Shown piece after piece: positions 6,346-57,739 of a stretch of 64,000 nt of DNA (within the stretch, counting starts at the first letter, position 1; each line of letters starts with the position of its first letter). The translations under genes were made by a program, and so were the position numbers. The stretch is from an uncultured Aliarcobacter sp. (GTDB lineage: Bacteria; Campylobacterota; Campylobacteria; Campylobacterales; Arcobacteraceae): the NCBI GenBank assembly GCA_963664305.2, contig CAXXLV010000002.1, positions 768,001 through 832,000 of the forward strand, in the 5' to 3' direction. The notes beneath the pieces are model-generated. The model ran no database searches and was not told where the DNA came from. It saw only the letters and a program-made list of their open reading frames with translations.

Positions 6346-6406
6346 TAAAATGGTCCTTATTTAAATTAGTATATAATACCTAAAAATATATTCAAGGGCT
6401 TTTAAA

Positions 6407-6985: not shown

Positions 6986-7106
6986 AAAAAAGTAAATCTT
7001 GATTATTTTTCTTGTAATTTCAGCTTTAAACCCCGAAATTTTAGCTATTTCAAAGCTTAAATACTATAAAGTTTTCACAATTTAATTTTATACAAGGAGT
7101 TCATCC

Positions 7107-7385: not shown

Positions 7386-7396
7386 TCTCTTCTTCT

Positions 7397-7431
7397 AAAA
7401 AGAATCCATTTTTTAATGGGTTCTTTTTTTT
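7397..7431 (+). terminator. intrinsic terminator after hup
   Basis: AAAAAGAATCCATT...AATGGGTTCTTTTTTT hairpin with U tract. Confidence 0.75.
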
Positions 7432-7445
7432 ATTCTCTAAAAAAT

Positions 7446-7486
7446 GCCGCTATGGTGAAATTGGTAGACACAAGGGATTCAAAATC
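7446..7486 (+). pseudogene. 5' half of host tRNA-Leu(CAA), left attachment site
   Basis: GCCGCTA-TGGTGAAATTGGTAGACAC-A-AGGGA-TTCAAAA-TC, then non-tRNA sequence; the 5' acceptor strand GCCGCTA pairs with TAGCGGT at 62066-62072. Confidence 0.93.
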
Positions 7487-7568
7487 GCAAGAGAAAGTAA
7501 TTTAAAAGCCTATAAATAGGTTTTAATTTGTTTTAGGTACGTAAAAAAGGTACACAATTTATTTATAT

Positions 7569-7652
7569 GGCTCTGTGGCGGAATTGGTAGACGCGTACGA
7601 TTCAAAATCGTATTCCACTGGAGTGCCGGTTCGATCCCGGCCAGGGCTACCA
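7569..7652 (+). tRNA. tRNA-Leu(CAA), intact, island-borne
   Basis: Acceptor GGCTCTG/CAGGGCT, anticodon arm TACGA-TTCAAAA-TCGTA, long variable arm, T arm GCCGG-TTCGATC-CCGGC, encoded ACCA. Confidence 0.95.
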
Positions 7653-7659
7653 TAATTAA

Positions 7660-7845
7660 TTATGATAGATTATCCTCGATATAATTGAGTACATCATCTC
7701 TAAGTATAAAATGTTTTACACCCACTTTAAATGATCTTAACTTTTTAAGTTTAATTAATTTTTTTGCAGTTGTTACTTTTATAAAACCTAATTCATCTAA
7801 TTCTTTCAATGAAAAAGAAATTCTTCTTGGTAATAATTCTTCCAT
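7660..7845 (-). CDS. excisionase-like HTH protein
   Basis: 61 aa basic protein with KLRSFKVGVKHFILRDDVLNY, typical of Xis/HTH_17; located at the island end. Confidence 0.75.
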   Translation of the reverse strand: MEELLPRRISFSLKELDELGFIKVTTAKKLIKLKKLRSFKVGVKHFILRDDVLNYIEDNLS

Positions 7846-7846
7846 T

Positions 7847-15065: not shown

Positions 15066-15071
15066 ATAACT

Positions 15072-19063: not shown

Positions 19064-19066
19064 TAT

Positions 19067-19993
19067 CTAAACTCCTAATTCTGCTAAGAAATTATCTCTA
19101 AACTCTTGAACACTTGGAAATGGTAAAATAAACATATGTATTATAAAACTATCCAAATAAATATGTTCATTAATTTGCTCTTTAACCTTAGCTTTCCAAT
19201 CTGATATTTTTAAATTAACTTCATCAATAACATCTTGAATAATTTTTGAATTAGGAGTATTAGGATATTTATTAAAATCAAATCCTACTAAAGCAACACC
19301 TCTATAATTTACACTATTATAATTTGGGTGATTTTTATCAAAATAGTTTACAAGTGCATTTTGGAATTCTTCATCTCTAACATCAATATTGTCATGTATT
19401 AATTCTATATCTCTATCTGTAGATGAATTATTTTGTAAGAAATTATTTAAACTTTCAAAACATTCTTTTATTGCAGTTCCATAAGTTTGATGAAGCTTAG
19501 ATTCACCCCAATATACTTCTAATTGACCATTTTCTCCTAATGTACAATGTATTCCATCTACACCATGATAATGAACATGTTGACTAGTTTTAAGTGGCAT
19601 TTTACAAATCAATTGTGGTATTTTTAAAAATTCTTCTACTAAAATATACAATAATAATTCACCACCTTCACCTGAAGTTTTTAAATGTGTAAAAAGGTTA
19701 ACAGCTTTTTCTCTAAGTTCAAGAGCATGTGCAAATCCACCTTCATCAGCATCTTTTTTTTGTGCAGCCATTATTTCACTTTTAGGTATTGCATAGTTTA
19801 TTACTCGATGAGATAAATATTTTGCAAAATCTTTAACCCTTGGTAATCCATTACCATTTAATTCTAAACAATGAACACAAGTAGTAGTTTTTGTATCATC
19901 AATTTCAGAATGAAGTTCTATAGTTTTTATATGTGCATTTATATTATCAGATTGACTACTTATTAATTCATCAAATTTTTCTCTTGTTAACAT
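19067..19993 (-). CDS. hamA: Hachiman nuclease (DUF1837)
   Basis: SGEGGELLLY...KMPLKT...HGVDGIH...WGESK, the DUF1837 signature. Confidence 0.88.
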   Translation of the reverse strand: MLTREKFDELISSQSDNINAHIKTIELHSEIDDTKTTTCVHCLELNGNGLPRVKDFAKYLSHRVINYAIPKSEIMAAQKKDADEGGFAHALELREKAVNLFTHLKTSGEGGELLLYILVEEFLKIPQLICKMPLKTSQHVHYHGVDGIHCTLGENGQLEVYWGESKLHQTYGTAIKECFESLNNFLQNNSSTDRDIELIHDNIDVRDEEFQNALVNYFDKNHPNYNSVNYRGVALVGFDFNKYPNTPNSKIIQDVIDEVNLKISDWKAKVKEQINEHIYLDSFIIHMFILPFPSVQEFRDNFLAELGV

Positions 19994-34780: not shown

Positions 34781-35533
34781 TTACAGATTTGAATAAATTT
34801 CATTTTCAATTAAAATATATTCATTCTCTGATAATTCATAGTTTATATCATAAGATGCACATATATTTTCTAATAAATTTTTTAAATAAACAATTGTATT
34901 TTTTGCTAAAAAATCATATTTAATATTTGGATTCATCTGTTTTATTTCATGTAAATATAACTCTTTTAATTCTTCTGAATTTGAAATATTTACAAGAGTG
35001 TTATTTAAAGCAATGATTTTTTCTTTTTTTAAAATCATTTTTGAAAATATTACTGGGTCTTCATGGATTGCAATAGCTATATCAAACAAATCTCTAGAGT
35101 TTCCAATATCTCCTCTATAATAAATTTTTTTAGCAATAATTTCTTCAATAGTATCAATTTGTATATCTTTATTCCATATATTAACTTTACAAAATGGTTC
35201 TTTTGATTTTTTCACTACATCAAAAAATTGAATTTTTGAGTCTTTATCGATAACAATTTCAGTATAAATATCGTTATGCCTAAAATTACCAGTAAAACCA
35301 ATAGAACCCATTTTAGATTTAATATTTTCACTCCAATTTGATGGTTTTAGCAAATGAGTTTTATTTTCATTTCCATAAATAAAAATATCAATATCAGTTG
35401 AATATCTATGATTCCAATAATATCCTGCTAATACAGTTCCACCACCTAAGCTTGAAATTTCTAATAGATTATTTTCTTTTAATAGTTCTAATGTAACATC
35501 TAGCATAGCTTTTTGTTTTGAAAAATCATACAT
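34781..35533 (-). CDS. AbiEii-family nucleotidyltransferase toxin
   Basis: GGGT...HRYSTDIDIF, IIAKK and RDLFD. Confidence 0.85.
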   Translation of the reverse strand: MYDFSKQKAMLDVTLELLKENNLLEISSLGGGTVLAGYYWNHRYSTDIDIFIYGNENKTHLLKPSNWSENIKSKMGSIGFTGNFRHNDIYTEIVIDKDSKIQFFDVVKKSKEPFCKVNIWNKDIQIDTIEEIIAKKIYYRGDIGNSRDLFDIAIAIHEDPVIFSKMILKKEKIIALNNTLVNISNSEELKELYLHEIKQMNPNIKYDFLAKNTIVYLKNLLENICASYDINYELSENEYILIENEIYSNL

Positions 35534-36044
35534 TTAAACTCTTTTTATTTAAAATATTTTGTAAAGCTGATGGAATAGATTTATTTAAATTATTTGTATT
35601 TGATTCAAAGTGTTTTAATCTAAATCTTTTATCCCATTTTTTTGCAATACCATCAATAGTTCTAAATGGACTTGTTATATAAATATTTTTAATATTACGT
35701 TTTGAAAGAGTGAATGTTGAAATAAAATCTTCTAATTCATCAATTTCTATTTCTTTAAAAAATTTCGAGTAAATAGTTTGTTCTTTAATATTTCCATCAT
35801 GATAATCTTGTTTTGAGAAAGCTTTTTTTATATCTTCATAAGTAAACTTTTCATTTTCAATATTTCTATTTAGAATATGAAAAAATCTATGATTTTCTTT
35901 TTTATTTAATATTTTTTCTACAAAATCAATTTCAAGATTTGATAATAATTCATAAAGTTTATTTCTATTACTACTTTCTTGTTTCCAATCATTTAATGTT
36001 GCAAATGGAATATCTAAATATTTACTAATTTCTATTTGTGTCAT
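35526..36044 (-). CDS. HTH protein, putative antitoxin partner of AbiEii
   Basis: MTQIEISKYLDIPFATLNDWK HTH; overlaps the toxin start. Confidence 0.65.
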   Translation of the reverse strand: MTQIEISKYLDIPFATLNDWKQESSNRNKLYELLSNLEIDFVEKILNKKENHRFFHILNRNIENEKFTYEDIKKAFSKQDYHDGNIKEQTIYSKFFKEIEIDELEDFISTFTLSKRNIKNIYITSPFRTIDGIAKKWDKRFRLKHFESNTNNLNKSIPSALQNILNKKSLNV

Positions 36045-36485
36045 TGCAACTCCTTTTTATTTACATTATATATGATAATCGTAATAATGTCAATTAATTT
36101 AGATTTATTATTTTGATAGTTTTAGCCTCTATCTTAGGCAAAATTTGTTAAGTCATTCTGCATTTAATTTATAACTTTTGCATTTAAGTTACTCATTTTT
36201 TGTTTTTAGATATCAAAAAAATCTCTTAAGATTTACACAAAAAATAAGAATACAAAGATTTAGTCTTTGTTAATTGTTAGTTCAAAATTAAAAACTTGTG
36301 AAAATATAACATAGATTTTTGTTTAATTTTTCAAAGAAATTTTTTTATATGGTTTCAAAAATTTTTTCAGTTTCCATTTTTTTAAGGAAAGCCTTTTAGA
36401 AACTAGTAAATAAAGGATTATTATAGTTGTTTACAAATTATGAATAAACATAAAAATAAACAATTTTTAAACATTGAATTAAATA

Positions 36486-37040
36486 TTAATTTCTATTCAA
36501 ACTATCAATTAAAGTACTTCTTTTAACTCCAAATGTTTTACAAACAGCAGCTTTACTCATTCCATCTTCTAAAGCTTTTTTAATAGCAATCATTTTTTCA
36601 TCATCAATGGCTCTAGGACGTCCTCCTCTAATACCTCTTAGTTTTGCAGATTCAAGTCCAGCTTTTACTCTTTCTTGAATTAGACTTCTTTCAAATTGAG
36701 CTAATGCTCCAAAGATATGAAAGAATAATTCACCAGATGCTGTTGTTGTATCCATACCTTCTGTAATAGATACAAAAGAAATATTTCTATTTTTTAAATC
36801 TGTAATAATATTTATTAAATGAGCTAAACTTCTTCCAAGTCTATCTAGTTTCCAAACAACTAAAGTATCACCATCTTTTAAAAACTCTATTGCTTTATCA
36901 AGCCCTACTCTTTTATCTTTTGCACCAGATGTTTTATCTGAAAATATATTTCTTTCATCTACTCCATATTTTATTAATGCATCTTTTTGTAAATTTAGAT
37001 TTTGTTCATCAGTTGAAACTCTAACGTAACCTATTAACAT
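36486..37040 (-). CDS. serine resolvase/invertase
   Basis: GYVRVST, KLDRLGRS, GGRP and a C-terminal HTH. Confidence 0.95.
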   Translation of the reverse strand: MLIGYVRVSTDEQNLNLQKDALIKYGVDERNIFSDKTSGAKDKRVGLDKAIEFLKDGDTLVVWKLDRLGRSLAHLINIITDLKNRNISFVSITEGMDTTTASGELFFHIFGALAQFERSLIQERVKAGLESAKLRGIRGGRPRAIDDEKMIAIKKALEDGMSKAAVCKTFGVKRSTLIDSLNRN

Positions 37041-37362
37041 ACGGAAAACCTCTTAGATAAAATTTCCGTATTATATCACAATCCGATAGTATTTATCGTA
37101 TATTTATTTTATGGTATCTTGTGCTTTTTCTATGCTTTTTTGATTTAAAGCTAGGGTGTCGGAAAACAGATGTTATAAATAATTTCTTTTTGGAATGCAA
37201 AATAAGAATAAATTTTATAGATTTAAATATTTGAAATATCATATTTTTTATGAATTTTTACCAATTATGTAGTTCATTTAAAAGGGATATTTATTTCTGA
37301 GTATGTTTTAGGGTTGACAGATCATTCGTGCCAGTCAACTTTTTTCTAGACTCAATTTTTAC

Positions 37363-37800
37363 CTATTTCACTTTTAGATAATCATATTTATTTGGATTAT
37401 TCAACAAATTTGGATTAATTTCTTTTGTGTAACTTTGAGGTTCTTTTTTTGGGAAACCTCCATTAATGTCTTTAATTATGAGGTATGTTAAGCCCATACT
37501 AGAAATAATCATTCCAAATAAAAATAGAATAAGAATAAAAACACTTCTATTACTATTAAAAAAAATTTTGTATTTAATTTCAACATAAACATGTAATATT
37601 CGTCCTAAAGGAATTGATAATCCAATTAACATAAAATGTGAATATGATACATTATAATTGAATATAAAATAAAAAATACTATAATTCAAGATTATAAATG
37701 GAATAATACATAAGAATAATGCATACCAACTTTTAAGATTTGTATCACTATATTTTATGATTAATTTTTCATACCACTTCCATAATTTACTTAGACTCAT
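37363..37800 (-). CDS. membrane protein
   Basis: Three hydrophobic segments. Confidence 0.55.
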   Translation of the reverse strand: MSLSKLWKWYEKLIIKYSDTNLKSWYALFLCIIPFIILNYSIFYFIFNYNVSYSHFMLIGLSIPLGRILHVYVEIKYKIFFNSNRSVFILILFLFGMIISSMGLTYLIIKDINGGFPKKEPQSYTKEINPNLLNNPNKYDYLKVK

Positions 37801-38051
37801 ATTTTATATCCCCTATTTTTATAAGATTTAAATTTAATCCACTATTCTCTATTGTCCATATCGGTCTAGGTTTTATAATATTATTTCGATTAAATATTTT
37901 TATATCTTTTATATTATTATTTTCATAAGATGGTAAATCATTTGATATATTTACTATTTCATTACTATTTGCACTATCTCTTTGTATCTCCAATATTTTT
38001 GCATTTGTATTAAATGTATTTATACTTTGCATTCCTATTTTTTACATTTTT

Positions 38052-38582
38052 CTATATAACTTGAAACTCTATATTTTCTTCCTCTAAAAAATCTTCTGGA
38101 AAAGCATTTGTTTGAATCTCATTTTTAACTAACTTTTCTAAAAAAGTACTCATATTCATCTCAAAAACATCTTCTTTATTGTAATCATTATCATATATCC
38201 CTACTTTCCAATTATTTGGATTTTTATTTTTTTCATAAATCCAAAACAAGTAGTCTCCATTATCAGTAGCCCCCCAAATAATTAGTGAATGGTTCTCAGG
38301 AAAAGGAGGTCTAAGATAATTTTCAGGAAAATCTTTTTTTAATTCATTATAAGCCAAATAAAAGAACTTCATATCATCTAAAAGATTCCCATTTTTTGAG
38401 AATGGATTTAAAACCCATAAAAAATTTCCTATACGACCCATTCCATATCTCATAATAAATTCTTTATAATCAGCAGGAAGTGTTGTACCCATTTTTTCTT
38501 CTACATTTTCCCACTCTTTTGGGTCTCCAGTTTCAACAGGATTCATTGGTGGTTTCATTACTTTTATCAAATTTTCTATCAT
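38052..38582 (-). CDS. SMI1/KNR4 (SUKH) immunity protein
   Basis: WENVEEKMGTTLPADYKEFI...YG and WGATDNGD. Confidence 0.88.
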   Translation of the reverse strand: MIENLIKVMKPPMNPVETGDPKEWENVEEKMGTTLPADYKEFIMRYGMGRIGNFLWVLNPFSKNGNLLDDMKFFYLAYNELKKDFPENYLRPPFPENHSLIIWGATDNGDYLFWIYEKNKNPNNWKVGIYDNDYNKEDVFEMNMSTFLEKLVKNEIQTNAFPEDFLEEENIEFQVI

Positions 38583-38830
38583 TATTTTTTTCCATTTACA
38601 TTTGGTATAGATACATCTAATTTAAAGCCATTGGAACCTGTTGCGCTCATGGTACCTGTTGGCATTGGATTATTGTCAATATATATTGGAACAACTCTAT
38701 AGTTTACTGTTTCTCCATTTTTTACTGCTTGTTGTACTTTAGTTTCAAATGAACGCATTGTTGCTGTATTTACACTTTGTTGATATAAAGTAACAAGGTT
38801 TTTATTATCATTTCCAGAACCACCAAGCCG
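38582..38830 (-). pseudogene. orphan DNA/RNA non-specific endonuclease toxin C-terminal fragment
   Basis: Minus strand reads RLGGSGNDNKNLVTLYQQSVNTATMRSFETKVQQAVKNGETVNYRVVPIY...NGKK*; its stop overlaps the SMI1 start (TAATG). Confidence 0.75.
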
Positions 38831-38849
38831 GTATTTTTAATATGATAAT

Positions 38850-39338
38850 CTACTCCTCTGTATACTCATATAAAGAATCCATAAATTCTTCAAAGTTATT
38901 GCCTAAAAATGAAATTATTAAATTACCATTTTCATCATCTGCATCATGATGAACCAGTACAATTTTTGGATTATCACTTTTTAAATCATCTCTATAATCA
39001 AAGCATATGTAATCTCCATTTGGTGTCCCTCCAAATGGAATGATTCCTTCTTGAAAATCTTCGTTATCCATTAAAAAGTACACCATAGAACTACTACTAT
39101 CATCTAATTCATACTTATTATTTTCTTTAAAAAAATAAAAATAAATAAAATTACCTTCATTTTTTTGAATAACTTCATCATAATAATCAAATGCACTTTT
39201 TTTAAATCTTAATCCATTATGTTTAGATAATAACTCTTTATATTCTAATGGAAAATTATAATTTACAAGTTTTTCATATTCTTCAATAATTTGACTTCTA
39301 AGTTTTCCACTTTCTCTATAAATTTTTAAATCTTGCAT
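38850..39338 (-). CDS. SMI1/KNR4 (SUKH) immunity protein
   Basis: IEEYEKLVNYNFPLEYKELLSKHNG and IPFGGTPNGDYICFDY. Confidence 0.9.
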   Translation of the reverse strand: MQDLKIYRESGKLRSQIIEEYEKLVNYNFPLEYKELLSKHNGLRFKKSAFDYYDEVIQKNEGNFIYFYFFKENNKYELDDSSSSMVYFLMDNEDFQEGIIPFGGTPNGDYICFDYRDDLKSDNPKIVLVHHDADDENGNLIISFLGNNFEEFMDSLYEYTEE

Positions 39339-42938: not shown

Positions 42939-45900
42939 ATGTTTATAAGAAGAAAATTTCAGAATATTGAAGATGTTAATAATCAAGTTACTTTTGATAT
43001 TATAATTCAGAACACTATATCAGTAATATTAGGTGAACCTGCATCAGGTAAAACATTTCAATTAAAAAACTATTCCTTTGGTAAAGAAAACATTCTTTTT
43101 AAAGAACTTGTTAATATAGAATTAGAAGAAATTAATATAGATAGTATAGAATTAATCTTTTTAGATTCTATAGATGAAGCATTAAGGGATACTTCTTCAA
43201 TATCTATGAAACAACTTCAAGATAAATTAACTAAATATATCAATAAATGTAAAGAAATAAATCCAAGTATTAAATTTGTTCTTACTTGTAGACAACTTGA
43301 ATGGAATGCATATTTTGCAAATAGTATTAAAGAAATTGATAATTCATTAAAAGTTTATAAAATTCTTGATTTAGAAAAAGCACAAATAGATCTTATATTA
43401 ACAGAAAAGCAAATTGATAATTCTGAATTTTGGAGTTTTATTTCATCTAACTATTTAGATTTTTTACTCAAAAATATTCTAGTGATTTTTAGAATTATTA
43501 ATAACTATAATGAATATAAAACAAAAACTGTTAACTATACAGATATTTATATTGATATTATAAAAGAACATTTAACAGTTAAAGGTGATGATAGAGATGA
43601 ATTAGTTACACAAAAGTCATTAACTGAATTAATAGATATATCATCTTCTTTAGCTACTTATATGATTTTAAATAGACAATCAACAATATCGACTGATGAT
43701 AATTTAAGTATATTAACAGATAAATTATATATGGTTAATATGAGTCTTATTAGCATTGATGATTTAAAAATAATACTTAATTCTTCACTATTTGATAAGG
43801 AAGGAAATAGTTTTAGTTTTTTTCATAAATCAATGCAAGAGTTTCTTATGGCTTACTTTATCAATAAAAAAAGTCTTAATTTAGAAACAATAAAAAAAGT
43901 TTTTTCTCATGAAATGAGATTTTATGAAGAATTTGAAGAAATTATTATTTACTTGACAAATTTAAATAACTCTTTTTTTAATGAAATTGTTAACTTTGAT
44001 CCGTTGATTTTTAGAAGACATCCAAATTTAAATGCAGAGCAGCAAGAAAAACTATTAGAAACTATGCTTAATAAACTTAAAATAGAAAAATCAATTATAT
44101 ATGGGAAATGGAATTATTTTGATAATAATTCACTTTTAAATTTTAACAAGCTTTCTAATATATCTCATATTGTAAAAGAAAATATTAATGAAAATCATCT
44201 TGACAAAGTTTTATATACTTATTTAATTAAACTTTTACATTACAACTATCATCAAGAGTTAGAAGAAGTAATATTCAAAATCTTAGAGGACTATAATAAA
44301 TCGCAGAATAATCAGCAGAAAAAAGAACCATCAGAAGATAGTGATGTTATTAAAGGCAATGTAAAAACTCGTGAACTTATAGTTGATACATTTGTCGATA
44401 ACTTTAATATAAATTGTAGATTATATGATTTTATGAATAAAAATGGTTTATTGAATGAAAATATTCATAAAATCTCTATGGTAAGTTTTGAAGCAAAACT
44501 TTTTGAATCACTTTACGGTATAAAATATAGTAATAGATATTCAAATCCTAAAAAAGTAACTGTCAATTCTACAAACTATTCTTTTGAAGAACTTTTACAG
44601 TTATTATTAAGTATTCCATATAGAGATTTACAATATATTGTTCCATTTTTAAAACAAAAGGATAGTCTAAAATGGTTTGAGTTTGTAAAAAGCCAAAAAA
44701 AAGTAAATTATGAAATTAATCTTTGGGCTATTTATGGGTTACTATTACACAATAATTCAAAAGAAGCAGTAAAGTTAGTCTTTGAATATTTATCAAGACC
44801 TATGGTATATCTACACATAGAAAAACAGGATATTGAAGATATGCCTTTTGAATTTAAAAAACTTGCAGATGATTTTTGGGAAGTTTATTTTCAAATGCAT
44901 GTAGATAATGTCTATTCTTTTACTGGTATATTTAAAATACTTCATATTTCTTTAGATGATATAATAAAGGCTACTGAAAAATATCCAATTGAAAAATATA
45001 CTAAATATTATGTACCACTTAGATTAAGTGAGAATATTGATGAATTTTTGATGTCAAATAGTATATTTGAATTATATATTCAGCAGTTAAAAAAAGAGCA
45101 AAAAGAAAGACAAAAAAAATGGGATGAGGAGTATAAAAAGAAAAAAAAAGAGATTGAACCAACTGAGCCCTCTGAATCTTTAAAAAGTATAATAGCAGCT
45201 AAAGAAATATATGATGAAAGTAAAAAATCATTAGAAACATTTCAAGATATTTTTAATGTTTTTTTATATGAAAGAATGTATGAAGAAAAAAATGAGCACT
45301 TAATAGATGAAACATTTAATAAAGAACAAAAAGAACAATTATTCTCTTATGCCCATAATAATTTTAAACAAGATATAGATTATTTGAAATTTAAAGAAAA
45401 TGTTTATTCACATAGAGTAGATTTAACATGTCTTTATATTTGTTATTTAAAAAGACTTGATAATGAAAGCTTATTAAAATATGTAAATACAAAAGAAACA
45501 TACGAAAAAGTATATTGGCATGTATTTAGACTTTCAAAAATGGATGAATCTTTTTTTATATATTTAACTCAAAAATATTTTGATTTTTTTATAGAGTTAT
45601 TTACTGAAACATTTAAGCTTTCACTAGAACAAAGTAATAATACAAGGGCTGTTTCATTACAAGGATTTTTTAACCTAGTAGAAAAATGTGAGAAATTTAA
45701 TAAAAATACTTTATCTGAAGTAATCAAATTAATTAGTTCTCTTGATCCTCACATTTTTATTAATATAGAAACATACAATCAAAATGAACTTTTAAAAGTA
45801 TTAGTATTAGATCAAAGTATGTATGATTATATAGAATCTTTAATGAAGTATGACAATTTTAAGTCAAAAAAATATTTAGATACTTTATTAAAATTAGATA

Positions 45901-46493
45901 CTAAAAAAGCAATTGGCAACTATATGAATTTATATTTAGATGAAGAAAAATATATTAAAAAGTCGTTTTGGGAAAAAATTAAAAGTTTTTTTAAAAAAGA
46001 AGAAATTATAGAAGTGCATAAATATAATAACCCTTTAATTAATCCTATTAAGATTAACTTATTAATGAATCTACTTTTTTCAATAAGTTCATCAAAAAAA
46101 ATAGATTTAATTTCAGATGAATACTTAAATATAATTATTCAAGATTATTATGAATTTTTTAAAGAATATGAATTTCAAGAAGGAATAGTTCAATATCCTG
46201 ATTATGATAGTATGAATAATATTATCTATACTATTTGGTCGATACTTAGTGCTAGTAGTGACCATATCTTGTTATTAAAAGAATTATCATCAAATGAAAA
46301 TGACAGAATATCAAATGCAGCTAAGTTTTATTTGGATAAAGCATATAATCAACAACAAAAAGATAGAACTTTACCAAATAGTTATTATAAAGCAATATTT
46401 GATAGTGAAAAAAAGAATACAAAAAAAGTAGTTAATCAGGGAATATATATAGCAGGTAATGTTCAAGGTAATGTTACTCTTACAAAAAATTAG
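42939..46493 (+). CDS. NACHT/STAND-type NTPase without N-terminal effector
   Basis: GEPASGKT at residue ~32, FLDSIDE, LTCR, and winged-helix motif FSFFHKSMQEFLMA; long helical C-terminal region. Confidence 0.85.
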   Translation: MFIRRKFQNIEDVNNQVTFDIIIQNTISVILGEPASGKTFQLKNYSFGKENILFKELVNIELEEINIDSIELIFLDSIDEALRDTSSISMKQLQDKLTKYINKCKEINPSIKFVLTCRQLEWNAYFANSIKEIDNSLKVYKILDLEKAQIDLILTEKQIDNSEFWSFISSNYLDFLLKNILVIFRIINNYNEYKTKTVNYTDIYIDIIKEHLTVKGDDRDELVTQKSLTELIDISSSLATYMILNRQSTISTDDNLSILTDKLYMVNMSLISIDDLKIILNSSLFDKEGNSFSFFHKSMQEFLMAYFINKKSLNLETIKKVFSHEMRFYEEFEEIIIYLTNLNNSFFNEIVNFDPLIFRRHPNLNAEQQEKLLETMLNKLKIEKSIIYGKWNYFDNNSLLNFNKLSNISHIVKENINENHLDKVLYTYLIKLLHYNYHQELEEVIFKILEDYNKSQNNQQKKEPSEDSDVIKGNVKTRELIVDTFVDNFNINCRLYDFMNKNGLLNENIHKISMVSFEAKLFESLYGIKYSNRYSNPKKVTVNSTNYSFEELLQLLLSIPYRDLQYIVPFLKQKDSLKWFEFVKSQKKVNYEINLWAIYGLLLHNNSKEAVKLVFEYLSRPMVYLHIEKQDIEDMPFEFKKLADDFWEVYFQMHVDNVYSFTGIFKILHISLDDIIKATEKYPIEKYTKYYVPLRLSENIDEFLMSNSIFELYIQQLKKEQKERQKKWDEEYKKKKKEIEPTEPSESLKSIIAAKEIYDESKKSLETFQDIFNVFLYERMYEEKNEHLIDETFNKEQKEQLFSYAHNNFKQDIDYLKFKENVYSHRVDLTCLYICYLKRLDNESLLKYVNTKETYEKVYWHVFRLSKMDESFFIYLTQKYFDFFIELFTETFKLSLEQSNNTRAVSLQGFFNLVEKCEKFNKNTLSEVIKLISSLDPHIFINIETYNQNELLKVLVLDQSMYDYIESLMKYDNFKSKKYLDTLLKLDTKKAIGNYMNLYLDEEKYIKKSFWEKIKSFFKKEEIIEVHKYNNPLINPIKINLLMNLLFSISSSKKIDLISDEYLNIIIQDYYEFFKEYEFQEGIVQYPDYDSMNNIIYTIWSILSASSDHILLLKELSSNENDRISNAAKFYLDKAYNQQQKDRTLPNSYYKAIFDSEKKNTKKVVNQGIYIAGNVQGNVTLTKN

Positions 46494-46517
46494 AACTTAA
46501 ATTATGGAGAATAAAGT

Positions 46518-47402
46518 TTGGCAAAAAAAGTAGAAAATGATGGTATTTATGTAGGGGGTGATGTCTATGGTGATGTATCTATGAATAAAGGGAATAATGA
46601 TAAACCTATCTGGAATACAATTGGAAAATGGGCTTCTATTGCTACACTAATAGGTTTCCTTTTATCTATTTATTTTTATTTAAATCCTATAGATATTAAT
46701 ACACAAAACAATGATAAGAAAGAAAGTGATTTACAAAGTCAAAATATTCAATCTCAACAAAACATTCATGGAGAGACTATAGTAGTAAATAATAATTATA
46801 AAGAGAATGTTATATCTGAAGAAACAATAACTGTTAATAAAGAAAAAAATCTTGAAAAAATTTTTATTGGAAGTGGACGTAAATTTATAGAAAGTTTATT
46901 TGGTATACCTATTATTGAAATTGATCATAAAGAACTTAATGTGATTGAAGTAAATTATTCATTTGAAAATTTCTATTTACAGTTTCTTTATAATACGATG
47001 GGTGAAGTTCAGTTTTACTCTGTAACATCAAAAAATGTTAACTTTAAACCTACTATACCATTATTTGATATCAAATTAGGCAATTATTCTTTTTATGAAT
47101 TTGGAAAAGATTCAACTTACCTTTATAGTTATTTAACTTCAAAACATTATGGATATGCAGAGTATATTTATGGAGGTAATAGTGGAAATTATCATAATTA
47201 TTACTTTGGCTATAATTCTGCAGGAGTAGATTATGGTGAAATATATCCTTTTACTAATCATGAAAATAAAAATGAATTAGAAAAGTTTCGTAAAACTTGT
47301 ATACCGAATACATTTGGAGTTGGGGATATAGGAAAGATTTCTGATGATAAATTATATTATGAGATGGGTATTGAATATTATACTTCAAGAGATATAAATT
47401 AA
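46518..47402 (+). CDS. single-TM protein with N-terminal G-x3-G motif and soluble C-terminal domain (ETEC_3214-like by recollection)
   Basis: GGAG RBS, TTG start; TM WASIATLIGFLLSIYFYL; YIYGGNSGNYHNYYFG...PNTF. Confidence 0.65.
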   Translation: MAKKVENDGIYVGGDVYGDVSMNKGNNDKPIWNTIGKWASIATLIGFLLSIYFYLNPIDINTQNNDKKESDLQSQNIQSQQNIHGETIVVNNNYKENVISEETITVNKEKNLEKIFIGSGRKFIESLFGIPIIEIDHKELNVIEVNYSFENFYLQFLYNTMGEVQFYSVTSKNVNFKPTIPLFDIKLGNYSFYEFGKDSTYLYSYLTSKHYGYAEYIYGGNSGNYHNYYFGYNSAGVDYGEIYPFTNHENKNELEKFRKTCIPNTFGVGDIGKISDDKLYYEMGIEYYTSRDIN

Positions 47403-49153: not shown

Positions 49154-50626
49154 ATGGATACACAAGAATATCAAATTGGTACAAAAGCTTTTAGTAGTAA
49201 AGAAGAGTATGATAAATACCTCGAAATCTCTAATATGATTGATAAAATTTGTACAGTAGCAGATATCGTAAATACAGTAGCAAGTACAAATAAATATGTA
49301 AAATTGGCAATGAATTTTTGTGATGATAATGGCGAAATTTTAGATGTTATTGAAATTTTTTCTCCTGTTTTAGAAGAAGGACAAACAGAAAGAGAAATAT
49401 TTGCAAGTATTGGTTCAAAAATTGTTAAACTTGAAGTAGAAACAGCTTTTGAATCTATTGGAGAAACAGCAGGAATAAGTGTAGGTACAGGGTTAGTTTC
49501 TATTGGAGTTATAGGTACAGCAGGAATTGGAACTGTTCCTGCATATATAATGGGAGCTGCTACTGGTGGTGCAACATATTTAGGATATAAATTTGTAGGA
49601 GTAGGAGTTGGACATTATGCAGAAAAATACTCTTATGGAGAATTTTTAGAATTATATGATAAATATGTAAAAAATACTGAAGAAAATAATAAACATGCAG
49701 AAAGTGCAGTATTTCTTGATAGTTCAACAAACGAAAAAACTACATTTGAAATAAATCAAGAAACAGTAGTATTAGAACCAATTATTGTACAAGACTTAAC
49801 AACTGGCTCAATAGTTTCTTTAAAATCAGGACAAACAATTTCCCATATAGCAGCAAATACAGAATTTACAACAATGGATTTACTGAAATATAATAATCTT
49901 ACCCTAGAACAAGCAAAAAATTTTCCAATAGGTTTTGAAATACAAATTCCAAAAAGTATAGAGAATTTTGATGGTGGATATGGAAATATAAAATTATATA
50001 CATCATACGATGGAACTCTTACATATTATATTCCAGATGAAAAAGGTAATGTAAATGTAATAAAAATTAATAGTGATGGAGAAATTTTACAGAACGATTT
50101 TGATACAAATGGAACATTGTTAGATGAAATAGTAGTAAATCCAAATGATAATCAATCATATAATGATGCAAAAACAATGGAAGAATTGTTGAAAGACCCA
50201 AATAATCTAGTAAAAATAGATGATGGGATATTGTATGCAGATAGTGGACAAATAAAAACTGATGTAAATTATGATAAAGATAGCCAAACCTTGTTTTATG
50301 AAGATGAAAATGGAAATCTTCAACAAATAACATATGAAGAGAATAGTGACTTACTAATCTATGGAGATACTAGTAACCCAGATAAAATAACCTTCACAGA
50401 TGAAAATGGAGATTATCAAGTATGGGAGAAAGATAATGAGGGTAACTTTGTACAAACAAATAAAGTAGATTATTCAGGAACTCTAAATACAGCAATAAAT
50501 CAAATAGGAAGCTTGATTATAATGAATAATCAAGATTTCTCTAATATAGAGAAAATTGCTGTAAGTACAACAGTATCAACTATCGCTGATTTTGCAACAT
50601 ATAAAACAAAAAGGAAGATATTATGA
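49154..50626 (+). CDS. putative toxin: Gly-rich hydrophobic N-domain, LysM and conserved acidic block
   Basis: GISVGTGLVSIGVIGTAGIG...GAATGG; LysM LKSGQTISHIA...LLKYNNL...IGFEIQIP; ADSGQIKTDVNYDKD block. Confidence 0.6.
   Translation: MDTQEYQIGTKAFSSKEEYDKYLEISNMIDKICTVADIVNTVASTNKYVKLAMNFCDDNGEILDVIEIFSPVLEEGQTEREIFASIGSKIVKLEVETAFESIGETAGISVGTGLVSIGVIGTAGIGTVPAYIMGAATGGATYLGYKFVGVGVGHYAEKYSYGEFLELYDKYVKNTEENNKHAESAVFLDSSTNEKTTFEINQETVVLEPIIVQDLTTGSIVSLKSGQTISHIAANTEFTTMDLLKYNNLTLEQAKNFPIGFEIQIPKSIENFDGGYGNIKLYTSYDGTLTYYIPDEKGNVNVIKINSDGEILQNDFDTNGTLLDEIVVNPNDNQSYNDAKTMEELLKDPNNLVKIDDGILYADSGQIKTDVNYDKDSQTLFYEDENGNLQQITYEENSDLLIYGDTSNPDKITFTDENGDYQVWEKDNEGNFVQTNKVDYSGTLNTAINQIGSLIIMNNQDFSNIEKIAVSTTVSTIADFATYKTKRKIL
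50237..50317 (+). repeat. 81-bp identical direct repeat (copy 2 at 51927-52007)
   Basis: GCAGATAGTGGACAAATAAAAACTGATG...GAAGATGAAAATGGAAAT is identical in both ORFs. Confidence 0.95.
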
Positions 50627-51297
50627 AAAAAATATTTTTAATTTTACTATTCTTTAATATATATTTAAATGCAGATGAAAATATAAAGTTTTATAATCCA
50701 AGTTTTAGTTGTGATAAAGTTAAAAAAGATAGTGTGGAATATGAAATTTGTATTGACGAAATACTATCCTTGCAAGATTTAATTTTGACAAATAACTATA
50801 ATTCTTTAATTAAATTAACAAAACTTAATACAAATAAAATAAAAGATGAACAAAAAACTTGGTTAATAAATAGAAAACAGTGTAAAGATTATAAATGTAT
50901 AAAAATATCTTATGAAGAAAGAATAAAACAGCTCAATTATATTTATGAACTATTTATAAAAAATGATTTTCTTCCATTGGAAAAAATAAATATAGCTAAT
51001 CCAGATGAAGAACAAAATAATATTACTTTAAAATATAATTTTGTTTGTAAACCTAATAAAGATTTACCCATAATTGCAAGAGATAAAGACTTTTATTTTA
51101 TAGAAAACTTAAGTAATTATCAAGATAGAAATTTTATTTTTTTTGTAAAAAGTACTTTTATTGATGAAATATCAAATGAACAAATATTAAAAGGAACTCT
51201 TATATTTGATGGTGGACAAACTTACCAACCAACAGCAATAGATTTTTTTACTTATAGTAAAAATTGGGATTGTGAATTAAATACTTCTAAATATTAA
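50623..51297 (+). CDS. LprI/DUF1311-type lysozyme inhibitor
   Basis: Signal peptide; PSFSCDK...EYEIC...LQD...EQKTWLINRKQC...C...YEERIKQL. Confidence 0.82.
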   Translation: MKKIFLILLFFNIYLNADENIKFYNPSFSCDKVKKDSVEYEICIDEILSLQDLILTNNYNSLIKLTKLNTNKIKDEQKTWLINRKQCKDYKCIKISYEERIKQLNYIYELFIKNDFLPLEKINIANPDEEQNNITLKYNFVCKPNKDLPIIARDKDFYFIENLSNYQDRNFIFFVKSTFIDEISNEQILKGTLIFDGGQTYQPTAIDFFTYSKNWDCELNTSKY

Positions 51298-51302
51298 AGG
51301 AA

Positions 51303-52037
51303 TTGATTATGGATAATATGAAAGTATCAGAGCAACTTAAAGATTTTATAAAAAATTATGAGAAATTAGAACTAAAGACATATCAAGATGAAGCTGGAGT
51401 TTGGACAGTAGGATATGGGCATACTGGTAAAAATATTGTTAAGAATATGACAATAACACAAAGCCAAGCGGATAGTTTCTTATCTAATGATTTAAGTAAA
51501 TTTGAAAGTACAGTTAATCAATATGTGAAAGTTCCACTTTCACAAAATCAATTTGATGCTCTAGTCGCTTTTTCTTATAATATAGGTATGGGTGGATTTA
51601 AAAATTCTACATTATTAAAACTATTAAATAATAGTGATTACGAAGGTGCTAGTTTAGAATTCCAGAAGTGGAATAAAATAACAATTAATGGTGAAAAAAA
51701 AACTTCTGATGGTTTATCTGTTAGAAGATATGATGAAGAAAATATTTTTAAAGATAATATTTATAATAGAACAGATATTGAAACTTATAGGCAAGAATTA
51801 TCTAAAGAAAATAATAATGAATCATCTACTGATACAGGAAATAATGACCAAGCTAATAATGATACAGAATATATGAAAGACCAAGATGGGAAAGATATAC
51901 CAGATATAAAAGATGGGACCTTAGTAGCAGATAGTGGACAAATAAAAACTGATGTAAATTATGATAAAGATAGCCAAACCTTGTTTTATGAAGATGAAAA
52001 TGGAAATTATCAAGTTTGGGAAAAAAAGGTTGCATAA
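51303..52037 (+). CDS. GH24 (phage-type) lysozyme with C-terminal conserved block
   Basis: YEKL...YQDEAGVWTVGYGHT, QNQFDALVAFSYNIG and GLSVRRYDE, then ADSGQIKTDVNY... Confidence 0.88.
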   Translation: MIMDNMKVSEQLKDFIKNYEKLELKTYQDEAGVWTVGYGHTGKNIVKNMTITQSQADSFLSNDLSKFESTVNQYVKVPLSQNQFDALVAFSYNIGMGGFKNSTLLKLLNNSDYEGASLEFQKWNKITINGEKKTSDGLSVRRYDEENIFKDNIYNRTDIETYRQELSKENNNESSTDTGNNDQANNDTEYMKDQDGKDIPDIKDGTLVADSGQIKTDVNYDKDSQTLFYEDENGNYQVWEKKVA

Positions 52038-53098: not shown

Positions 53099-56000
53099 TT
53101 AATCATGAATTATTTTATAATAATTTCTATATTCAGTTTTTTCACGTTCACCACTATAACTTAATTTTTTTACGCCATTTGGAAAATATCTTTTTTCAGT
53201 CCATACTAACCAAATTAATCGTTTGTTTTTTTCTTCAAGGTACTTTTCTAAATAATCTTTTCTGATATAAGTAAATGTAGATTTGTTATCAAAATCTTCT
53301 CCAAATTTAAAAGATGTTGATATTATTCCTCCATTTTGATTATATAAATTTGAACTTTGAGGTTTTAAATATATTCCAAGATTATTAGAAATATTTTTTG
53401 AAGGAACAATTGTCTCTCCTCTTGAAATAATTTCACTATGATAACTTTCCCAAGAATTTTTAAAAATTGTTGTTTCTAAATTTATTTCAATACTATCATT
53501 TTCTCGTTCAAAATATGTAATATCAATATATTTAGTTCTAAAACCCATTGATTCTGCAATTTTTTTTGTTCGTTCCTCATCATTATTATGTAGAAGAGAA
53601 ATATTTAATTTAAAATCATCGTTATTGATTTTATCCCAAACATCTTCTAAATATTCTTTTTCTTTTTTTTCTAATTCAACAAACTCAACTTCCGATAATT
53701 CTATGCCATTATTGAAAATTTTCAATTCTTTTTTTATTCTTTCCACATCATGATGATTATAAGAAATTTGAAAATTTTTTGAATAATTATAAGGTATTAA
53801 ATCACACCAAGGGATTTCACCGTCATATATATAATGTTCTTCTAAATTTTCTAAATAATCAAAACTATAATCATTATATGTAGCTGTTAAGTTTTTGATT
53901 TTTTTATATTCTTCTTCGTCCAGCAAAACTGCATTTATAGAAATATGAACATCTCTAGTTTGGTCTTCTTTATCCTTTTGAGATATAGAACCCTTTAAAA
54001 GAAGCCAATCATTTTTTTCGTTAGTTCCTAAATGACTATTTAATTTAATATAATCACTAATATCTAAGTCCTTATCATTTGAATACCATGTTACAGCTTC
54101 TTTTTCTAAATCTCCTAAAAAGTTATTCTTATTTATTTCTTCAAATAAATTATATTTTCTTAATTCAATAGGAAAACTCGGGTCAATATCTGTATCTGAG
54201 ATTCTTAATTCATCTTCATTTTCCCACTTTTTTAGTAAACCTAAATCACTTCTATATCCTGCCATTTCATAAAATGCAATCCAAGAATATTTTTTGCCAT
54301 ATCTATCTATTTTACCAGCACTTTCATTATTTGAATAACGCCAACTATCATCTCCAATTTGTTTATCAATTTTTCCAAATTTTGTAAATAAATATCCTAA
54401 ATTATACATTTTCCAATAAATTTGAGATAACATGAGTTTATATTCTTTATGTCCACTATCATAATTACTTCTTCCCTCTATCAATCTACCAATAGTATAA
54501 TTTTCAAAATCCATATGAATAGGTGTACCAAATCTATATTTTAATTCTTTGTAGTTTGGTATTATCCCCCATTCTTTGTGATAGTAGTTCTTTAAAGGAT
54601 ATTTAATTAACTCCTTTTCTGAATCAGTTAATAAACTAGAATGATGAATTAGTGCTATATCTATAGTTCTTTTTGCATAATCTCTAGTTAAAATATGTGT
54701 TGTAGGATATTTTGCTTTACTTGAAAACATATTATCAAAAAGAAAATTCCCATATAATGGTAAATATTCTTTTCTATATCTTTCATCATCGAAATCATTT
54801 TGTCTAGCCATTGCTAGCCCATAAGTTACAGCTAACATTCTTTCAACTACATAAGGGTCATTAATATCAATTGAATATTTTAATAAGTCTAAAAATTCTT
54901 TTGGGTATTTTCTTGCATAATAATATAATCCTCTTGTTGCTTCATCTCTAAGTCTTCTTATATTTGTAGTAAAAACCCACATAACTTTTTTAGCACCTAT
55001 GTGAATTCTATTAGATATTTGTTCTTGTTCTCTACATGCCTTTTCAAAATTATTAATAAATCCTGTAAAATATGAATTATCATACCAAGAATGATTTTTT
55101 CTTATATATTCACTCCAAAACAAATCTCTTTCCAACATTGATAAGTTTTTAAGTAAATTAGACCAGAAATTAAAATTTAAAGGATGATTAATATCAAATT
55201 CTACATTTGTAGACAGACTAAATAAATGATTTTTATTAGATAAAAATTCATTTTCTAAAAAGTTTTTTATTAACTTTTCATTTTTTTTAATAAACTTAGA
55301 GTTGATTTCAAAAAGAGACTCAATTGAATATTTTTTTGCTCTTTCATTCTCTAGTGTGTTAAATAAAAAAATATTAGCCTTTTTTATAATTAAAATAGTA
55401 ATCGTCCTAAGAATATCATCGTACAAAGGATGTTCTGTATTTTTTTCTAAAAGTTTTTTTCTAAAATCTTTTGATTTTACAAATTTTAATAAAGGTTCTT
55501 TTTTCCCTATTCTTTTATTTATATTATTTAGCCCATTTTCAATTAGCTCAGTCCCTCTCTCTGGTATGAAGAATTCAAGCCCTGTTTTTATTGAGTTAAT
55601 AAACCAATTATTTGATTTATATTTTAAGTATGGATAATATTCTTCATATGCTTGAATAAGATACTTAGAAATGAGATAACCACCTAATAAATCGTAGGTA
55701 AATTGTATTTCCTCTTTATCGTTCTTTGTATTCCAATCTCTATAGATAAGTAGGTTTTCTCCTTCAAAAACTCTTAACTCATCATCACTAAACAGTTTTT
55801 TAGAACGAGGCATTCCTCTAGTATTATTTTCCCAAAAATATTTAGAAAGTTGCAATAACTTGCTTTGTGTAAAGTCATTATTATACTTTGGGTCAAGTTC
55901 TTTTAATAAAGTTGTTATATTTTCATTACTTAATTGGATATATTCATCAAAAACATCAAATAAATCTTCCTTCTGAAATGATACTTTAACTACTTTATTA

Positions 56001-57739
56001 CGATTAGGATTTTTTGTTTCACAAAAGATTTTTAAGTGTAATGGATGTTTAAAATAACCTATTGCATTTGAACGATTTTCTAATTTTATTTTATAAAATT
56101 TAAAATAAGTTTCTATAGCTTTCCAATTTAACCCCTCAAAACCGTGAATAAACTCTTTTAATCTCCATCTATCATCATAGTTAAAATATTTCTTTGGAAA
56201 TAATTGGTCTTCATAAGAGTTACGATATGTTGTTATTAAAACTATATGGGGATATTGTTTTAATTTTAAAATAAATTTTTCTAAACCATTTTTCCATACA
56301 GAATTCCAATGTGTAGATTCATTTAATCCATCTATAATAATTGGTATTTTTACTTTATATACTCTTGCACTAATTTCTAAAGCACCTAAAAAATCATCAA
56401 ATGTCCAATCAACTGGTATAGAAAAGTTATCTTTTAATTGATTTTCTAAATTTTGGTCTGTATATATTTCCTTAGCTAAAATAAAAATAGCAGGCTCTTT
56501 TTGATTTAGAATTTGATTTTCAAAAATATTAAAAGAGACATGAGTTTTTCCCATACCAGCTTCACCTGAAATATGAAGTTCATTTTGCTCTAATAAATCA
56601 AATACTCTAAAAACTCCTTCTAGTGAAGAAATTGCATATTCACTTAAATCATATAAAGGAGAAAAAAGAATATCCCTAATTTTTTTTCTTTTTCTATTTT
56701 CAGTTTCAATTTTATCTTTTTCTTTTTTTTCTAAATCTGCACTATTTTCTTTTTCTACCCTAAGATGTTTAATAGGTTCACATAAGTCTGATTCTGATAA
56801 ATCATCATATTTTTTATAAAATTCTTTTAAAGAATTTATATATTTGTCAAGTTCTTTTATTTTAAGTTTTAGTTTTTGTTCATCTTTTATTAAAATGATT
56901 TGTTTTATTTCTTCTATCTTATTGATTGCAATATCAATAATATTCTCTTTTTCTTCTAAAAACTTCCTAAAATATGTTTGTATATCTTTATATTCATCTT
57001 TTACATCTTCAGAAAACAGTTTTATTAAAGATTGTTTATATTCCTCGGCATAAATTAATACTTGATGTTGTTCCATTTCTTTTTCAATAACTTCTATAAA
57101 TTTATTTCCACCTAGTATTTTGTAAATTGTCATATCAATATTTGTTTGAATATGAATTTCAGATATATATTTAGTTTTTATTTGTGTTTTAGCAATATCT
57201 ATTTTATACCTATTTTCAAACCATTCCTGTGTAAGGAATTTTTCTGAAAAGAAAAATCTATGGATTGATGGATAATCTTTCAAATAATTAAGTAATTCAC
57301 TTTCTCCCCAATGTATAAGCTCTACATTATGATTAGTTGGTAAAACGGTTCTTCCATTTTTAGTTGAGTTTGCTAAATCATCGTCAAACCAGTTTTTTTC
57401 ATCAGGTGTAAAGTTACATTTACTACAAAGAAACCATTTTTTTATGTTAGGATGTTTATCATATGTAGTTTGTAGAGATTTTTTAATTTGCTCTTTTCTT
57501 CCTCCCTCATTTAAACGACAAAAATATTTAGCTTGCCAACCATAAACATCACCATTTTCATAAGTTAGATAAAATTCAACTCCATCTCCACCACCACTAT
57601 CATCAATAGAAGTTAAAATTGCACCATTTAAAATATCATCTTTAAGTTTTTCTGATACTATTTGATAGCATAATTCCTCAAAACTTTTTTTAGTATCACC
57701 TGAATATGGTTGTAACTTATCCCAATTTATATTTTGCAT
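53099..57739 (-). CDS. Avs/AVAST-type antiviral STAND NTPase with N-terminal Mrr-like nuclease
   Basis: FEELC...GGGDGVEFY...GWQAKYF; GEAGMGKT; IIDGLNE; DPYVVERM; RYGKKYSWIA. Confidence 0.82.
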   Translation of the reverse strand: MQNINWDKLQPYSGDTKKSFEELCYQIVSEKLKDDILNGAILTSIDDSGGGDGVEFYLTYENGDVYGWQAKYFCRLNEGGRKEQIKKSLQTTYDKHPNIKKWFLCSKCNFTPDEKNWFDDDLANSTKNGRTVLPTNHNVELIHWGESELLNYLKDYPSIHRFFFSEKFLTQEWFENRYKIDIAKTQIKTKYISEIHIQTNIDMTIYKILGGNKFIEVIEKEMEQHQVLIYAEEYKQSLIKLFSEDVKDEYKDIQTYFRKFLEEKENIIDIAINKIEEIKQIILIKDEQKLKLKIKELDKYINSLKEFYKKYDDLSESDLCEPIKHLRVEKENSADLEKKEKDKIETENRKRKKIRDILFSPLYDLSEYAISSLEGVFRVFDLLEQNELHISGEAGMGKTHVSFNIFENQILNQKEPAIFILAKEIYTDQNLENQLKDNFSIPVDWTFDDFLGALEISARVYKVKIPIIIDGLNESTHWNSVWKNGLEKFILKLKQYPHIVLITTYRNSYEDQLFPKKYFNYDDRWRLKEFIHGFEGLNWKAIETYFKFYKIKLENRSNAIGYFKHPLHLKIFCETKNPNRNKVVKVSFQKEDLFDVFDEYIQLSNENITTLLKELDPKYNNDFTQSKLLQLSKYFWENNTRGMPRSKKLFSDDELRVFEGENLLIYRDWNTKNDKEEIQFTYDLLGGYLISKYLIQAYEEYYPYLKYKSNNWFINSIKTGLEFFIPERGTELIENGLNNINKRIGKKEPLLKFVKSKDFRKKLLEKNTEHPLYDDILRTITILIIKKANIFLFNTLENERAKKYSIESLFEINSKFIKKNEKLIKNFLENEFLSNKNHLFSLSTNVEFDINHPLNFNFWSNLLKNLSMLERDLFWSEYIRKNHSWYDNSYFTGFINNFEKACREQEQISNRIHIGAKKVMWVFTTNIRRLRDEATRGLYYYARKYPKEFLDLLKYSIDINDPYVVERMLAVTYGLAMARQNDFDDERYRKEYLPLYGNFLFDNMFSSKAKYPTTHILTRDYAKRTIDIALIHHSSLLTDSEKELIKYPLKNYYHKEWGIIPNYKELKYRFGTPIHMDFENYTIGRLIEGRSNYDSGHKEYKLMLSQIYWKMYNLGYLFTKFGKIDKQIGDDSWRYSNNESAGKIDRYGKKYSWIAFYEMAGYRSDLGLLKKWENEDELRISDTDIDPSFPIELRKYNLFEEINKNNFLGDLEKEAVTWYSNDKDLDISDYIKLNSHLGTNEKNDWLLLKGSISQKDKEDQTRDVHISINAVLLDEEEYKKIKNLTATYNDYSFDYLENLEEHYIYDGEIPWCDLIPYNYSKNFQISYNHHDVERIKKELKIFNNGIELSEVEFVELEKKEKEYLEDVWDKINNDDFKLNISLLHNNDEERTKKIAESMGFRTKYIDITYFERENDSIEINLETTIFKNSWESYHSEIISRGETIVPSKNISNNLGIYLKPQSSNLYNQNGGIISTSFKFGEDFDNKSTFTYIRKDYLEKYLEEKNKRLIWLVWTEKRYFPNGVKKLSYSGEREKTEYRNYYKIIHD

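Follow-up and report, generated by a model that had tools for sequence, protein, structure and literature searches.

A STAND NTPase and its membrane partner in an Aliarcobacter defence island carry matching tail-to-head motifs: a candidate for amyloid-type signalling in reversed polarity

How could a STAND NTPase pass its signal to a separate membrane protein? This question is raised by two adjacent genes of an uncultured Aliarcobacter sp., found in a window of 64,000 nucleotides (contig CAXXLV010000002.1, positions 768,001 to 832,000), which is the whole stretch of DNA that was analysed. The upstream gene encodes a NACHT-type NTPase and the downstream gene a small membrane protein, here called the partner. 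The NTPase ends in a motif of 22 residues, and a matching motif opens the partner; we refer to these motifs as tags. We suggest that the activated sensor clusters its C-terminal beta-type tag, and that this cluster recruits or templates the membrane effector via the effector's N-terminal copy. This reading is, in our judgement, moderately probable.

The two tags are identical at 12 of 22 residues and at 46 of 66 nucleotides, and four of the 12 identical residues are encoded by different codons. Their match has a score of 67, which was reached by 0 of 5,000 shuffles, and it ranks first among the genome's 1,496 pairs of adjacent same-strand open reading frames (ORFs), where the runner-up scores 37 and the mean is 18.7 (sd 4.6). 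Chance or composition as its cause is ruled out by the shuffles and by this ranking. No further close copy of either motif was found among the genome's 7,161 open frames, where the next best score is 47. The content of G, N, Q, V and I is 62% and 52% in the two tags, as compared with 28% in the core. The sensor-side tag is retained in the tails of five kin, with 11-16 of 21-22 residues identical, and the whole proteins are 53-87% identical. A sequence-only reading of this DNA had reported the 12/22 match, a P-loop near residue 32 and synonymous codon differences between the copies, and all three were borne out.

The two ORFs lie in one frame with two stops between them (TAG 46491, TAA 46512). 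Three DNA runs, each from a different study, yielded contigs across the junction; stops and spacer are unchanged in them, and the sole change in either motif is synonymous and falls in the second one (46559 T>C). An assembly error or a single fused ORF is ruled out by the two stops and by the intact junction in the three other studies. The Shine-Dalgarno (SD) sequence of the spacer forms an anti-SD duplex of -6.4 kcal/mol. An out-of-frame mini-ORF of 9 codons (46504-46533, +) overlaps the SD and the start of the partner, for which homologues favour the TTG start. The promoter scan of the locus was at chance level (59 vs 51 +/- 6.5) and found no terminator. In RNA run X17, a single 92-nt piece crosses the junction, with 7 of 30 bins covered, which is insufficient to demonstrate expression.

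The defining parts of a STAND/NACHT protein, namely Walker A, a Walker B of the form D[GAS]hDE and a helical or winged-helix region after them, were all found in the NTPase (the signature is from the accessible part of 10.1101/2022.07.19.500537). The AlphaFold model, with a predicted local distance difference test score (pLDDT) of 83, has an N-terminal P-loop domain followed by a long helical region. The tail that holds the tag (residues 1159-1184) is disordered and of low pLDDT in this monomer. The best Foldseek matches are Avs4 (8dgf, E 1e-8), NLRP and NOD2 (E 1e-8 to 1e-6). EruA (NF058535) is the sole family match and covers residues 13-314 only. A full-length match to EruA or HyoA above the curated cut-off was not reached, PADLOC gave no match either, and Pfam gave none for the NTPase or the partner. 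EruA was also matched by 18 of 18 relatives tested, every one under the cut-off, and nuclease-tailed relatives match the C-terminal region of HyoA. A profile search with the NTPase gave 651 representatives at E<=0.001, 150 of them listed, and the Campylobacterota family aligns with a wider multi-phylum group over ~450 residues (probability 99.6). Judged by these matches, the NTPase is a remote relative of EruA/HyoA in the Avs10 clade, with homology up to about residue 455, and is a probable anti-phage sensor. Domain searches and the AlphaFold model gave no other recognisable output domain.

In homologues of the NTPase, the C-terminal module is swapped beyond the YYKxIFD motif that ends the conserved core. 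The tail is nuclease-like (PD-(D/E)XK, judged from sequence by eye), or a tag with a four-transmembrane (4TM) domain, or a transmembrane (TM) helix with an N/Q segment and a helical tail. Further types are a tag with one TM helix, a tag ahead of a nuclease-like domain (L026, 1915-5991) and a tag alone. In the TM and N/Q type, the tag-like segment comes after the TM helix, and that of L004 scores 45 against the tail of the window NTPase. A CHAT-like module is also among the C-terminal effectors of the STAND lineage. Because relatives carry swappable effectors at this C-terminal place, the tag stands in the effector slot, which in the window NTPase contains nothing else. The sequence-only reading had called the NTPase effector-less; this label is misleading, since the clade puts its effectors at the C-terminus. 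On a tree of 49 rows the tag-only state needs four changes, in either direction and all forced by well-supported (starred) branches, and the hydropathy cut-off behind the tree classes puts four TM-tailed proteins into 'soluble' (the start-codon counts below use a separate set of 31 loci).

Named homologues come from Aliarcobacter, Malaciobacter and other Campylobacterota, which makes an Arcobacteraceae host probable. All three tag-only NTPases of the Campylobacterota family with genomic context (the window, L011 of Halarcobacter and L023) have a matched downstream partner. In L011 and L023 this partner is the 4TM domain, which is found fused in other relatives. A search from the 4TM side, with matches in 2 of 401 genomes of the phylum and 4 of 184 of the family, led to two new stand-alone genes, L165 and L166. 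In all four distinct stand-alone 4TM genes examined (L011, L023, L165 and L166), the upstream gene ends in a matching tag; L163 was left out of the pair counts, as it seems to duplicate one of those included. The upstream genes of L165 and L166, which were thus discovered from the effector side, are non-STAND. The L165 protein that shares its terminal tag with the 4TM gene has 191 aa, is receiver-like by eye (no family match) and comes behind an unannotated 1,815-aa protein; together with the 4TM gene, these (1551-8002, -) are possibly an undescribed three-gene defence system. Its counterpart in L166 has 148 aa and is preceded by an ABC-type ATPase (best PADLOC match NsnB, E 5e-60). The three L166 genes (4670-7184, +) are inserted amid genes that by sequence are nitrogen-fixation-like. 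The 4TM partners weakly match a PADLOC effector model labelled TIR in three of four cases (E 2e-4 to 2e-3).

The five pairs have five different tags. In the 5x5 matrix the diagonal scores are 67-80 and the off-diagonal scores 15-38, with 0 of 5,000 shuffles reaching each pair. In the partners the tag opens at residue 1-3, and in the upstream proteins 1-12 residues separate it from the stop. Pairing, specificity, conservation and context can be read directly from these loci, and the tail-to-head device is reused with different tags and unrelated upstream proteins in related bacteria. The sequence-only reading had called for homologous pairs: these exist, are syntenic, and have motifs that match within and differ between pairs. 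It had also named, as a refutation, homologues in the form of one fused ORF with an internal tandem repeat. No such repeat of the tag was seen, and fused homologues carry one tag each. What it overlooked is the motif in place of a C-terminal effector, the internal start of the fused forms and the reuse by non-STAND systems.

Of the 17 TM-tailed fused genes, 13 have this internal start, an in-frame ATG, GTG or TTG at +4 codons past the core, with an anti-SD value <= -4.9. Among the 31 loci in all, the same start is present in 0/9 nuclease-tailed, 0/3 split and 0/2 other loci. As a background, 2.1% of 375 internal ATGs reach an anti-SD value of -4. The TM-tailed exceptions are L024 and L049 (ATG at +0), L055 and L057. 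At the +4 start site, Val is encoded by GTG in 4/4 cases (usage 9.6%), and the Lys that forms the SD TAAGGA is encoded by AAG in 10/10 (usage 14.8%). Split forms have near-start codons such as GTT and ATT at +4. Eight cyanobacterial tag and TM tails, picked by eye, have an ATG at one position in 8/8, with a good SD in three. We suggest that the fused TM-tailed genes probably make a free tag-TM effector in addition, and fused and split forms would therefore be functionally alike. The 4TM domain is also fused to Roc-COR GTPases (L072 219-2327, L073 3709-6366, L074 3631-6456). In L073 and L074 a G/N-rich beta-type linker precedes it, and a convincing internal start before the linker was not found in these fusions.

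The window partner has a different architecture (Table 1). Its TM helix has a modest hydropathy peak of 1.59, with a net charge of +2 before and -2 after it. The sequence-only reading had described a TM helix followed by a Q/N segment; both are present, and the ETEC_3214 domain that it left unnamed is probably periplasmic. The AlphaFold model is poor (pLDDT 39) and gives weak, non-significant hints of a BLIP/BamE-like fold, with nothing at E<=0.001 in Foldseek. In the ESM Atlas, ETEC_3214 led to unnamed clusters only and the 4TM protein to no usable feature match. Among 11 ETEC_3214 relatives, only the closest (P0003-P0005) have the effector-side tag; it is absent in P0006-P0013, of which P0007 appears truncated N-terminally. 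ETEC_3214 genes occur in 3 of 184 family genomes, including that of the window. Because the tag is limited to the three closest relatives, and others are without tag or NTPase, the window partner looks like a recruited protein that acquired the tag. The ETEC_3214 gene of L158 has no tag, and 3 kb upstream of it lies the gene of a 548-aa protein with an N/G-rich N-terminus (6328-7974, -).

Table 1. Features of the NTPase and partner locus, in window positions.
Feature	Position	Strand	Basis or remark
STAND (NACHT-type) NTPase, 1,184 aa, long helical sensor region	42939..46493	+	NF058535 70 bits vs cut-off 1000; AlphaFold; Foldseek
Walker A GEPASGKT, aa 32-39	43032..43055	+	invariant across 28 aligned homologues
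Walker B LIFLDSIDE, aa 72-80	43152..43178	+	DSIDE invariant (28 aligned homologues); fits NACHT D[GAS]hDE signature
YYKAIFD, end of conserved core; C-terminal module swapped beyond here in homologues	46383..46403	+	
NTPase C-terminal G/N/V/I-rich beta-type motif (sensor-side tag)	46422..46487	+	NTPase ends KKVVNQGIYIAGNVQGNVTLTKN
Spacer between NTPase and partner ORFs, 24 nt	46494..46517	+	SD GGAG 46506-46509; second in-frame stop at 46512
Partner, 294 aa: motif, TM helix, Q/N segment, ETEC_3214 domain	46518..47402	+	TTG start
Partner N-terminal matching motif (effector-side tag)	46524..46589	+	partner begins MAKKVENDGIYVGGDVYGDVSMNK
Single TM helix, predicted N-in/C-out by charge	46620..46691	+	AlphaFold helix 35-55; charge, hydropathy
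Second Q/N-rich segment, after TM helix	46734..46796	+	by eye like post-TM segment of fused 'TM + N/Q' homologues
ETEC_3214 domain	46839..47324	+	NF043066, 131.6 bits, E 2e-38

For the trigger, the amyloid state and the killing we draw on Avs and Bab/Agp biology. The helical region of the NTPase would bind a phage protein, as Avs10 kin sense the major capsid protein, and the NTPase would oligomerise on this trigger. The clustered C-terminal tags could then stack as a cross-beta or beta-solenoid seed. Many partner molecules would join this seed through their cytoplasmic N-terminal tags, and the resulting clusters of TM helices would damage the inner membrane and abort the infection. Fused relatives would do likewise from one gene, with a second short tag and TM product from the internal start. 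A bolder extension, tentative and more doubtful than probable, is that Campylobacterota use a portable amyloid plug of reverse polarity. A C-terminal tag of ~22 residues, acting as the template for a TM effector with a tag at its head, would give a membrane-killing output to any defence protein, whether STAND NTPase, receiver-like protein or partner of a Menshen-like ABC ATPase. Fused genes would make both the seed and the polymerising subunit via the internal start, and the tag would be periplasmic in some relatives.

Each pair was probably created by duplication of the tag DNA, whichever reading holds: the copies within pairs are 70-79% identical in DNA, and a common origin by duplication is therefore likely. 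The issue is the use of the upstream copy. A fused sensor-tag-TM gene could have come apart when its tag-coding DNA underwent a short tandem duplication, with the upstream copy a leftover, the internal starts leftovers of whole-gene capture, and any protein interaction running through other surfaces. Besides the DNA identity, such a fission would agree with the single-tag fused forms within the family of the NTPase and with the near-start codons GTT and ATT of split forms. Yet the upstream copy stops 1-12 residues past the tag in 5/5 pairs and is retained across the 53-87%-identical kin. The pooled copies have more synonymous than replacement change (pS 0.41 vs pN 0.21, Fisher p 0.002), with a dN/dS of ~0.43 that is biased downwards by local alignment. 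The arrangement also recurs with different tags behind three unrelated kinds of upstream gene, the effector of the window pair is of another kind (ETEC_3214), with no tag in its other relatives, and the rare codons that maintain the SD and the start are retained. We thus consider a fission relic unlikely. The tags could instead make a defined, stoichiometric beta-strand or beta-helix contact that does not propagate itself, like the effector-associated domains (EADs). This fits all the genomic pairing evidence too; EADs can take either terminus (accessible part of PMC7159879), and one related cyanobacterial tail weakly matches a Gp5_C beta-helix repeat (E 0.034). However, ~22 residues that are disordered in the monomer model are short for a folded adaptor, their composition and length agree with the bacterial amyloid signalling sequences (BASS), and a free effector from an internal start suits templated amplification. 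A non-amyloid adaptor is hence quite improbable in our view. It is far less credible that the partner is no killer here, but a periplasmic sensor or regulator of BLIP/BamE-like type that sends a signal inwards to the NTPase or keeps it switched off. ETEC_3214 does stand alone elsewhere, with no known toxicity and a weak BLIP/BamE likeness, and the tag joins two NLR-like proteins in L093 and L140 (below). Against this role, no further output domain is recognisable in the NTPase, the TM helix and N/Q segment resemble by eye the fused effector tails of the closest relatives, and the partners of the other pairs (L011, L023, L165 and L166) are of the 4TM family, which replaces nuclease tails in fusions.

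Several observations weigh against the templating model that we favour. Among distant loci (80 of 314 kept), 0 of 63 complete NTPases tested have a matching downstream head (best score 33). Of the 48 tested against all neighbours, two match, both to the N-terminus of another NLR (NOD-like receptor) and not to an effector. In Scytonema (L093) the tail scores 72 against the N-terminus of a downstream NB-ARC-TPR protein, and in Calothrix (L140) 49 against that of an upstream nSTAND1-WD40 protein. These two tie C-terminal tags to the type of N-terminal NLR motif known from BASS, but neither joins a sensor to an effector. In L139 the tail is tag-only and no partner was found in the locus, and L055 and P0060 are 4TM fusions without a tag. 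Neighbouring genes were compared for proteins other than P0015-P0020 and P0050. The L166 pair taken alone has no synonymous excess (pS 0.22, pN 0.25), and the loci share ancestry, so that the counts overstate independence. The tags have no Pfam match at E<=1, including the BASS, RHIM and EAD10 models. As for the partner, its single TM helix is only moderately hydrophobic, the available part of PMC5554520 assigns no function to ETEC_3214, and two ETEC_3214 genes in relatives have neither a tag nor an NTPase within 9-11 kb upstream. Separately, the distant protein P0151 has a tag-like C-terminal tail (GGAYVAGNVDTGGGDF).

The pair sits in a mobile island rich in defence genes within the window (GC ~21-29%), with integrases and IS110 among the neighbours. 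The sequence-only reading had proposed a two-gene defence module. The defence context stands, by the remote EruA/HyoA kinship and the Avs2-like and Hachiman-like genes of the island; its interpretation as a whole is partly supported, with amyloid templating and cell death as putative elements. The Avs2-like STAND gene (53099-57739, -; PADLOC E 8.5e-132; NCBIfam 298 bits, under the cut-off of 1000) is a second NLR-like sensor of the island. At 12360-19993 (-) lie HamA and a DEAD-box helicase (Hachiman-like), DUF2779 and a superfamily-1 helicase matching DUF2726/REase. An AbiEii-type gene with an upstream partner, a resolvase and two SUKH immunity genes are found at 34781-39338 (-). At 49154-52037 (+), a 490-aa ORF and a phage-lysozyme ORF have a near-identical stretch of ~30 residues in common (ADSGQIKTDVNYDKDSQTLFYEDENGN), with an LprI-like gene between them; these genes may be a polymorphic toxin/immunity remnant. 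Scans of genome contigs with the NTPase or the partner singly gave no match, and plasmids and viral contigs likewise gave none.

How does the pair compare with known systems, as described in the accessible portions of the cited papers? Like Bab/Agp (BASS11; 10.1101/2024.11.07.622273), it consists of adjacent defence-island genes for a large sensor and a small membrane-acting partner, with a G/N-rich motif of ~20 residues and proposed templating. In Bab/Agp, the sensor bears the motif at its N-terminus and a Bell-type effector bears it at its C-terminus, with amyloid function proven. Our pair, known from sequence alone, is reversed in polarity, has a STAND sensor, and belongs with TM plus ETEC_3214 or 4TM effectors. 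With the BASS1-10 NLR/Bell pairs (10.1101/2020.01.06.895854) and fungal NWD2/HET-S it shares length, composition, close collinear pairs, pair-specific motifs and 'all-in-one' fused relatives. The 22-aa tags have the length and composition of BASS (~25 aa, rich in G, N, Q, V and I), and in part of the PMC8086366 supplement short stretches of them resemble entries of set C02 (GDVYGDV). Unlike the K-depleted BASS, the window motif is flanked by several Lys, the layout of NLR N-terminus and effector C-terminus is reversed in 5/5 pairs, and there is no Bell/HeLo, TIR, CHAT or hydrolase effector. BASS motifs were found mainly in multicellular Actinobacteria and Cyanobacteria (10.1101/2020.01.06.895854). 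The screens covered NLR N-termini and effector C-termini only (same paper, restated in PMC12261475), and the 'reverse approach' of PMC9815663 likewise searches effector C-termini. A mirror-image class would therefore be missed. Our literature search, which fell short of most subscription journals and bioRxiv supplements, found no description of short beta tags in tail-to-head orientation or of internal starts in such genes.

On the sensor side, EruA of Erebus, HyoA of Hypnos and bNACHT64 are Avs10 proteins that sense the phage major capsid protein (10.64898/2026.01.04.697583, whose main text does not contain 'amyloid'). The window NTPase resembles them in its N-terminal NTPase homology, and differs in its partial match and in having no nuclease. 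On NACHT proteins, C-terminal effectors are described as infrequent, and folding back is predicted to bring them to the place where effectors usually sit (10.1101/2022.07.19.500537). If our reading is true, it shows how STAND proteins with C-terminal effector slots pass the signal to a separate protein, amyloid signalling reaches unicellular Campylobacterota and TM effectors, and many 'fused' defence genes could yield two products. The five natural and mutually distinct tag pairs provide a ready specificity matrix. Since EADs may sit at either end, with GAP1 carrying a C-terminal EAD1 (PMC7159879; also PMC8195603), the coupling principle is already known. Like EADs, the tags are duplicated on a core protein and an adjacent effector, neighbours are most alike, and effectors are also fused (PMC7159879). 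EADs, unlike the window tags, are small and mostly helical domains, and no Pfam EAD model of the catalogued EAD1-11 domains matches the tags; the accessible part of PMC7159879 makes no mention of internal starts. By the tests run, the pair appears to work like a BASS or EAD pair and yet to lie outside BASS1-11 and EruA.

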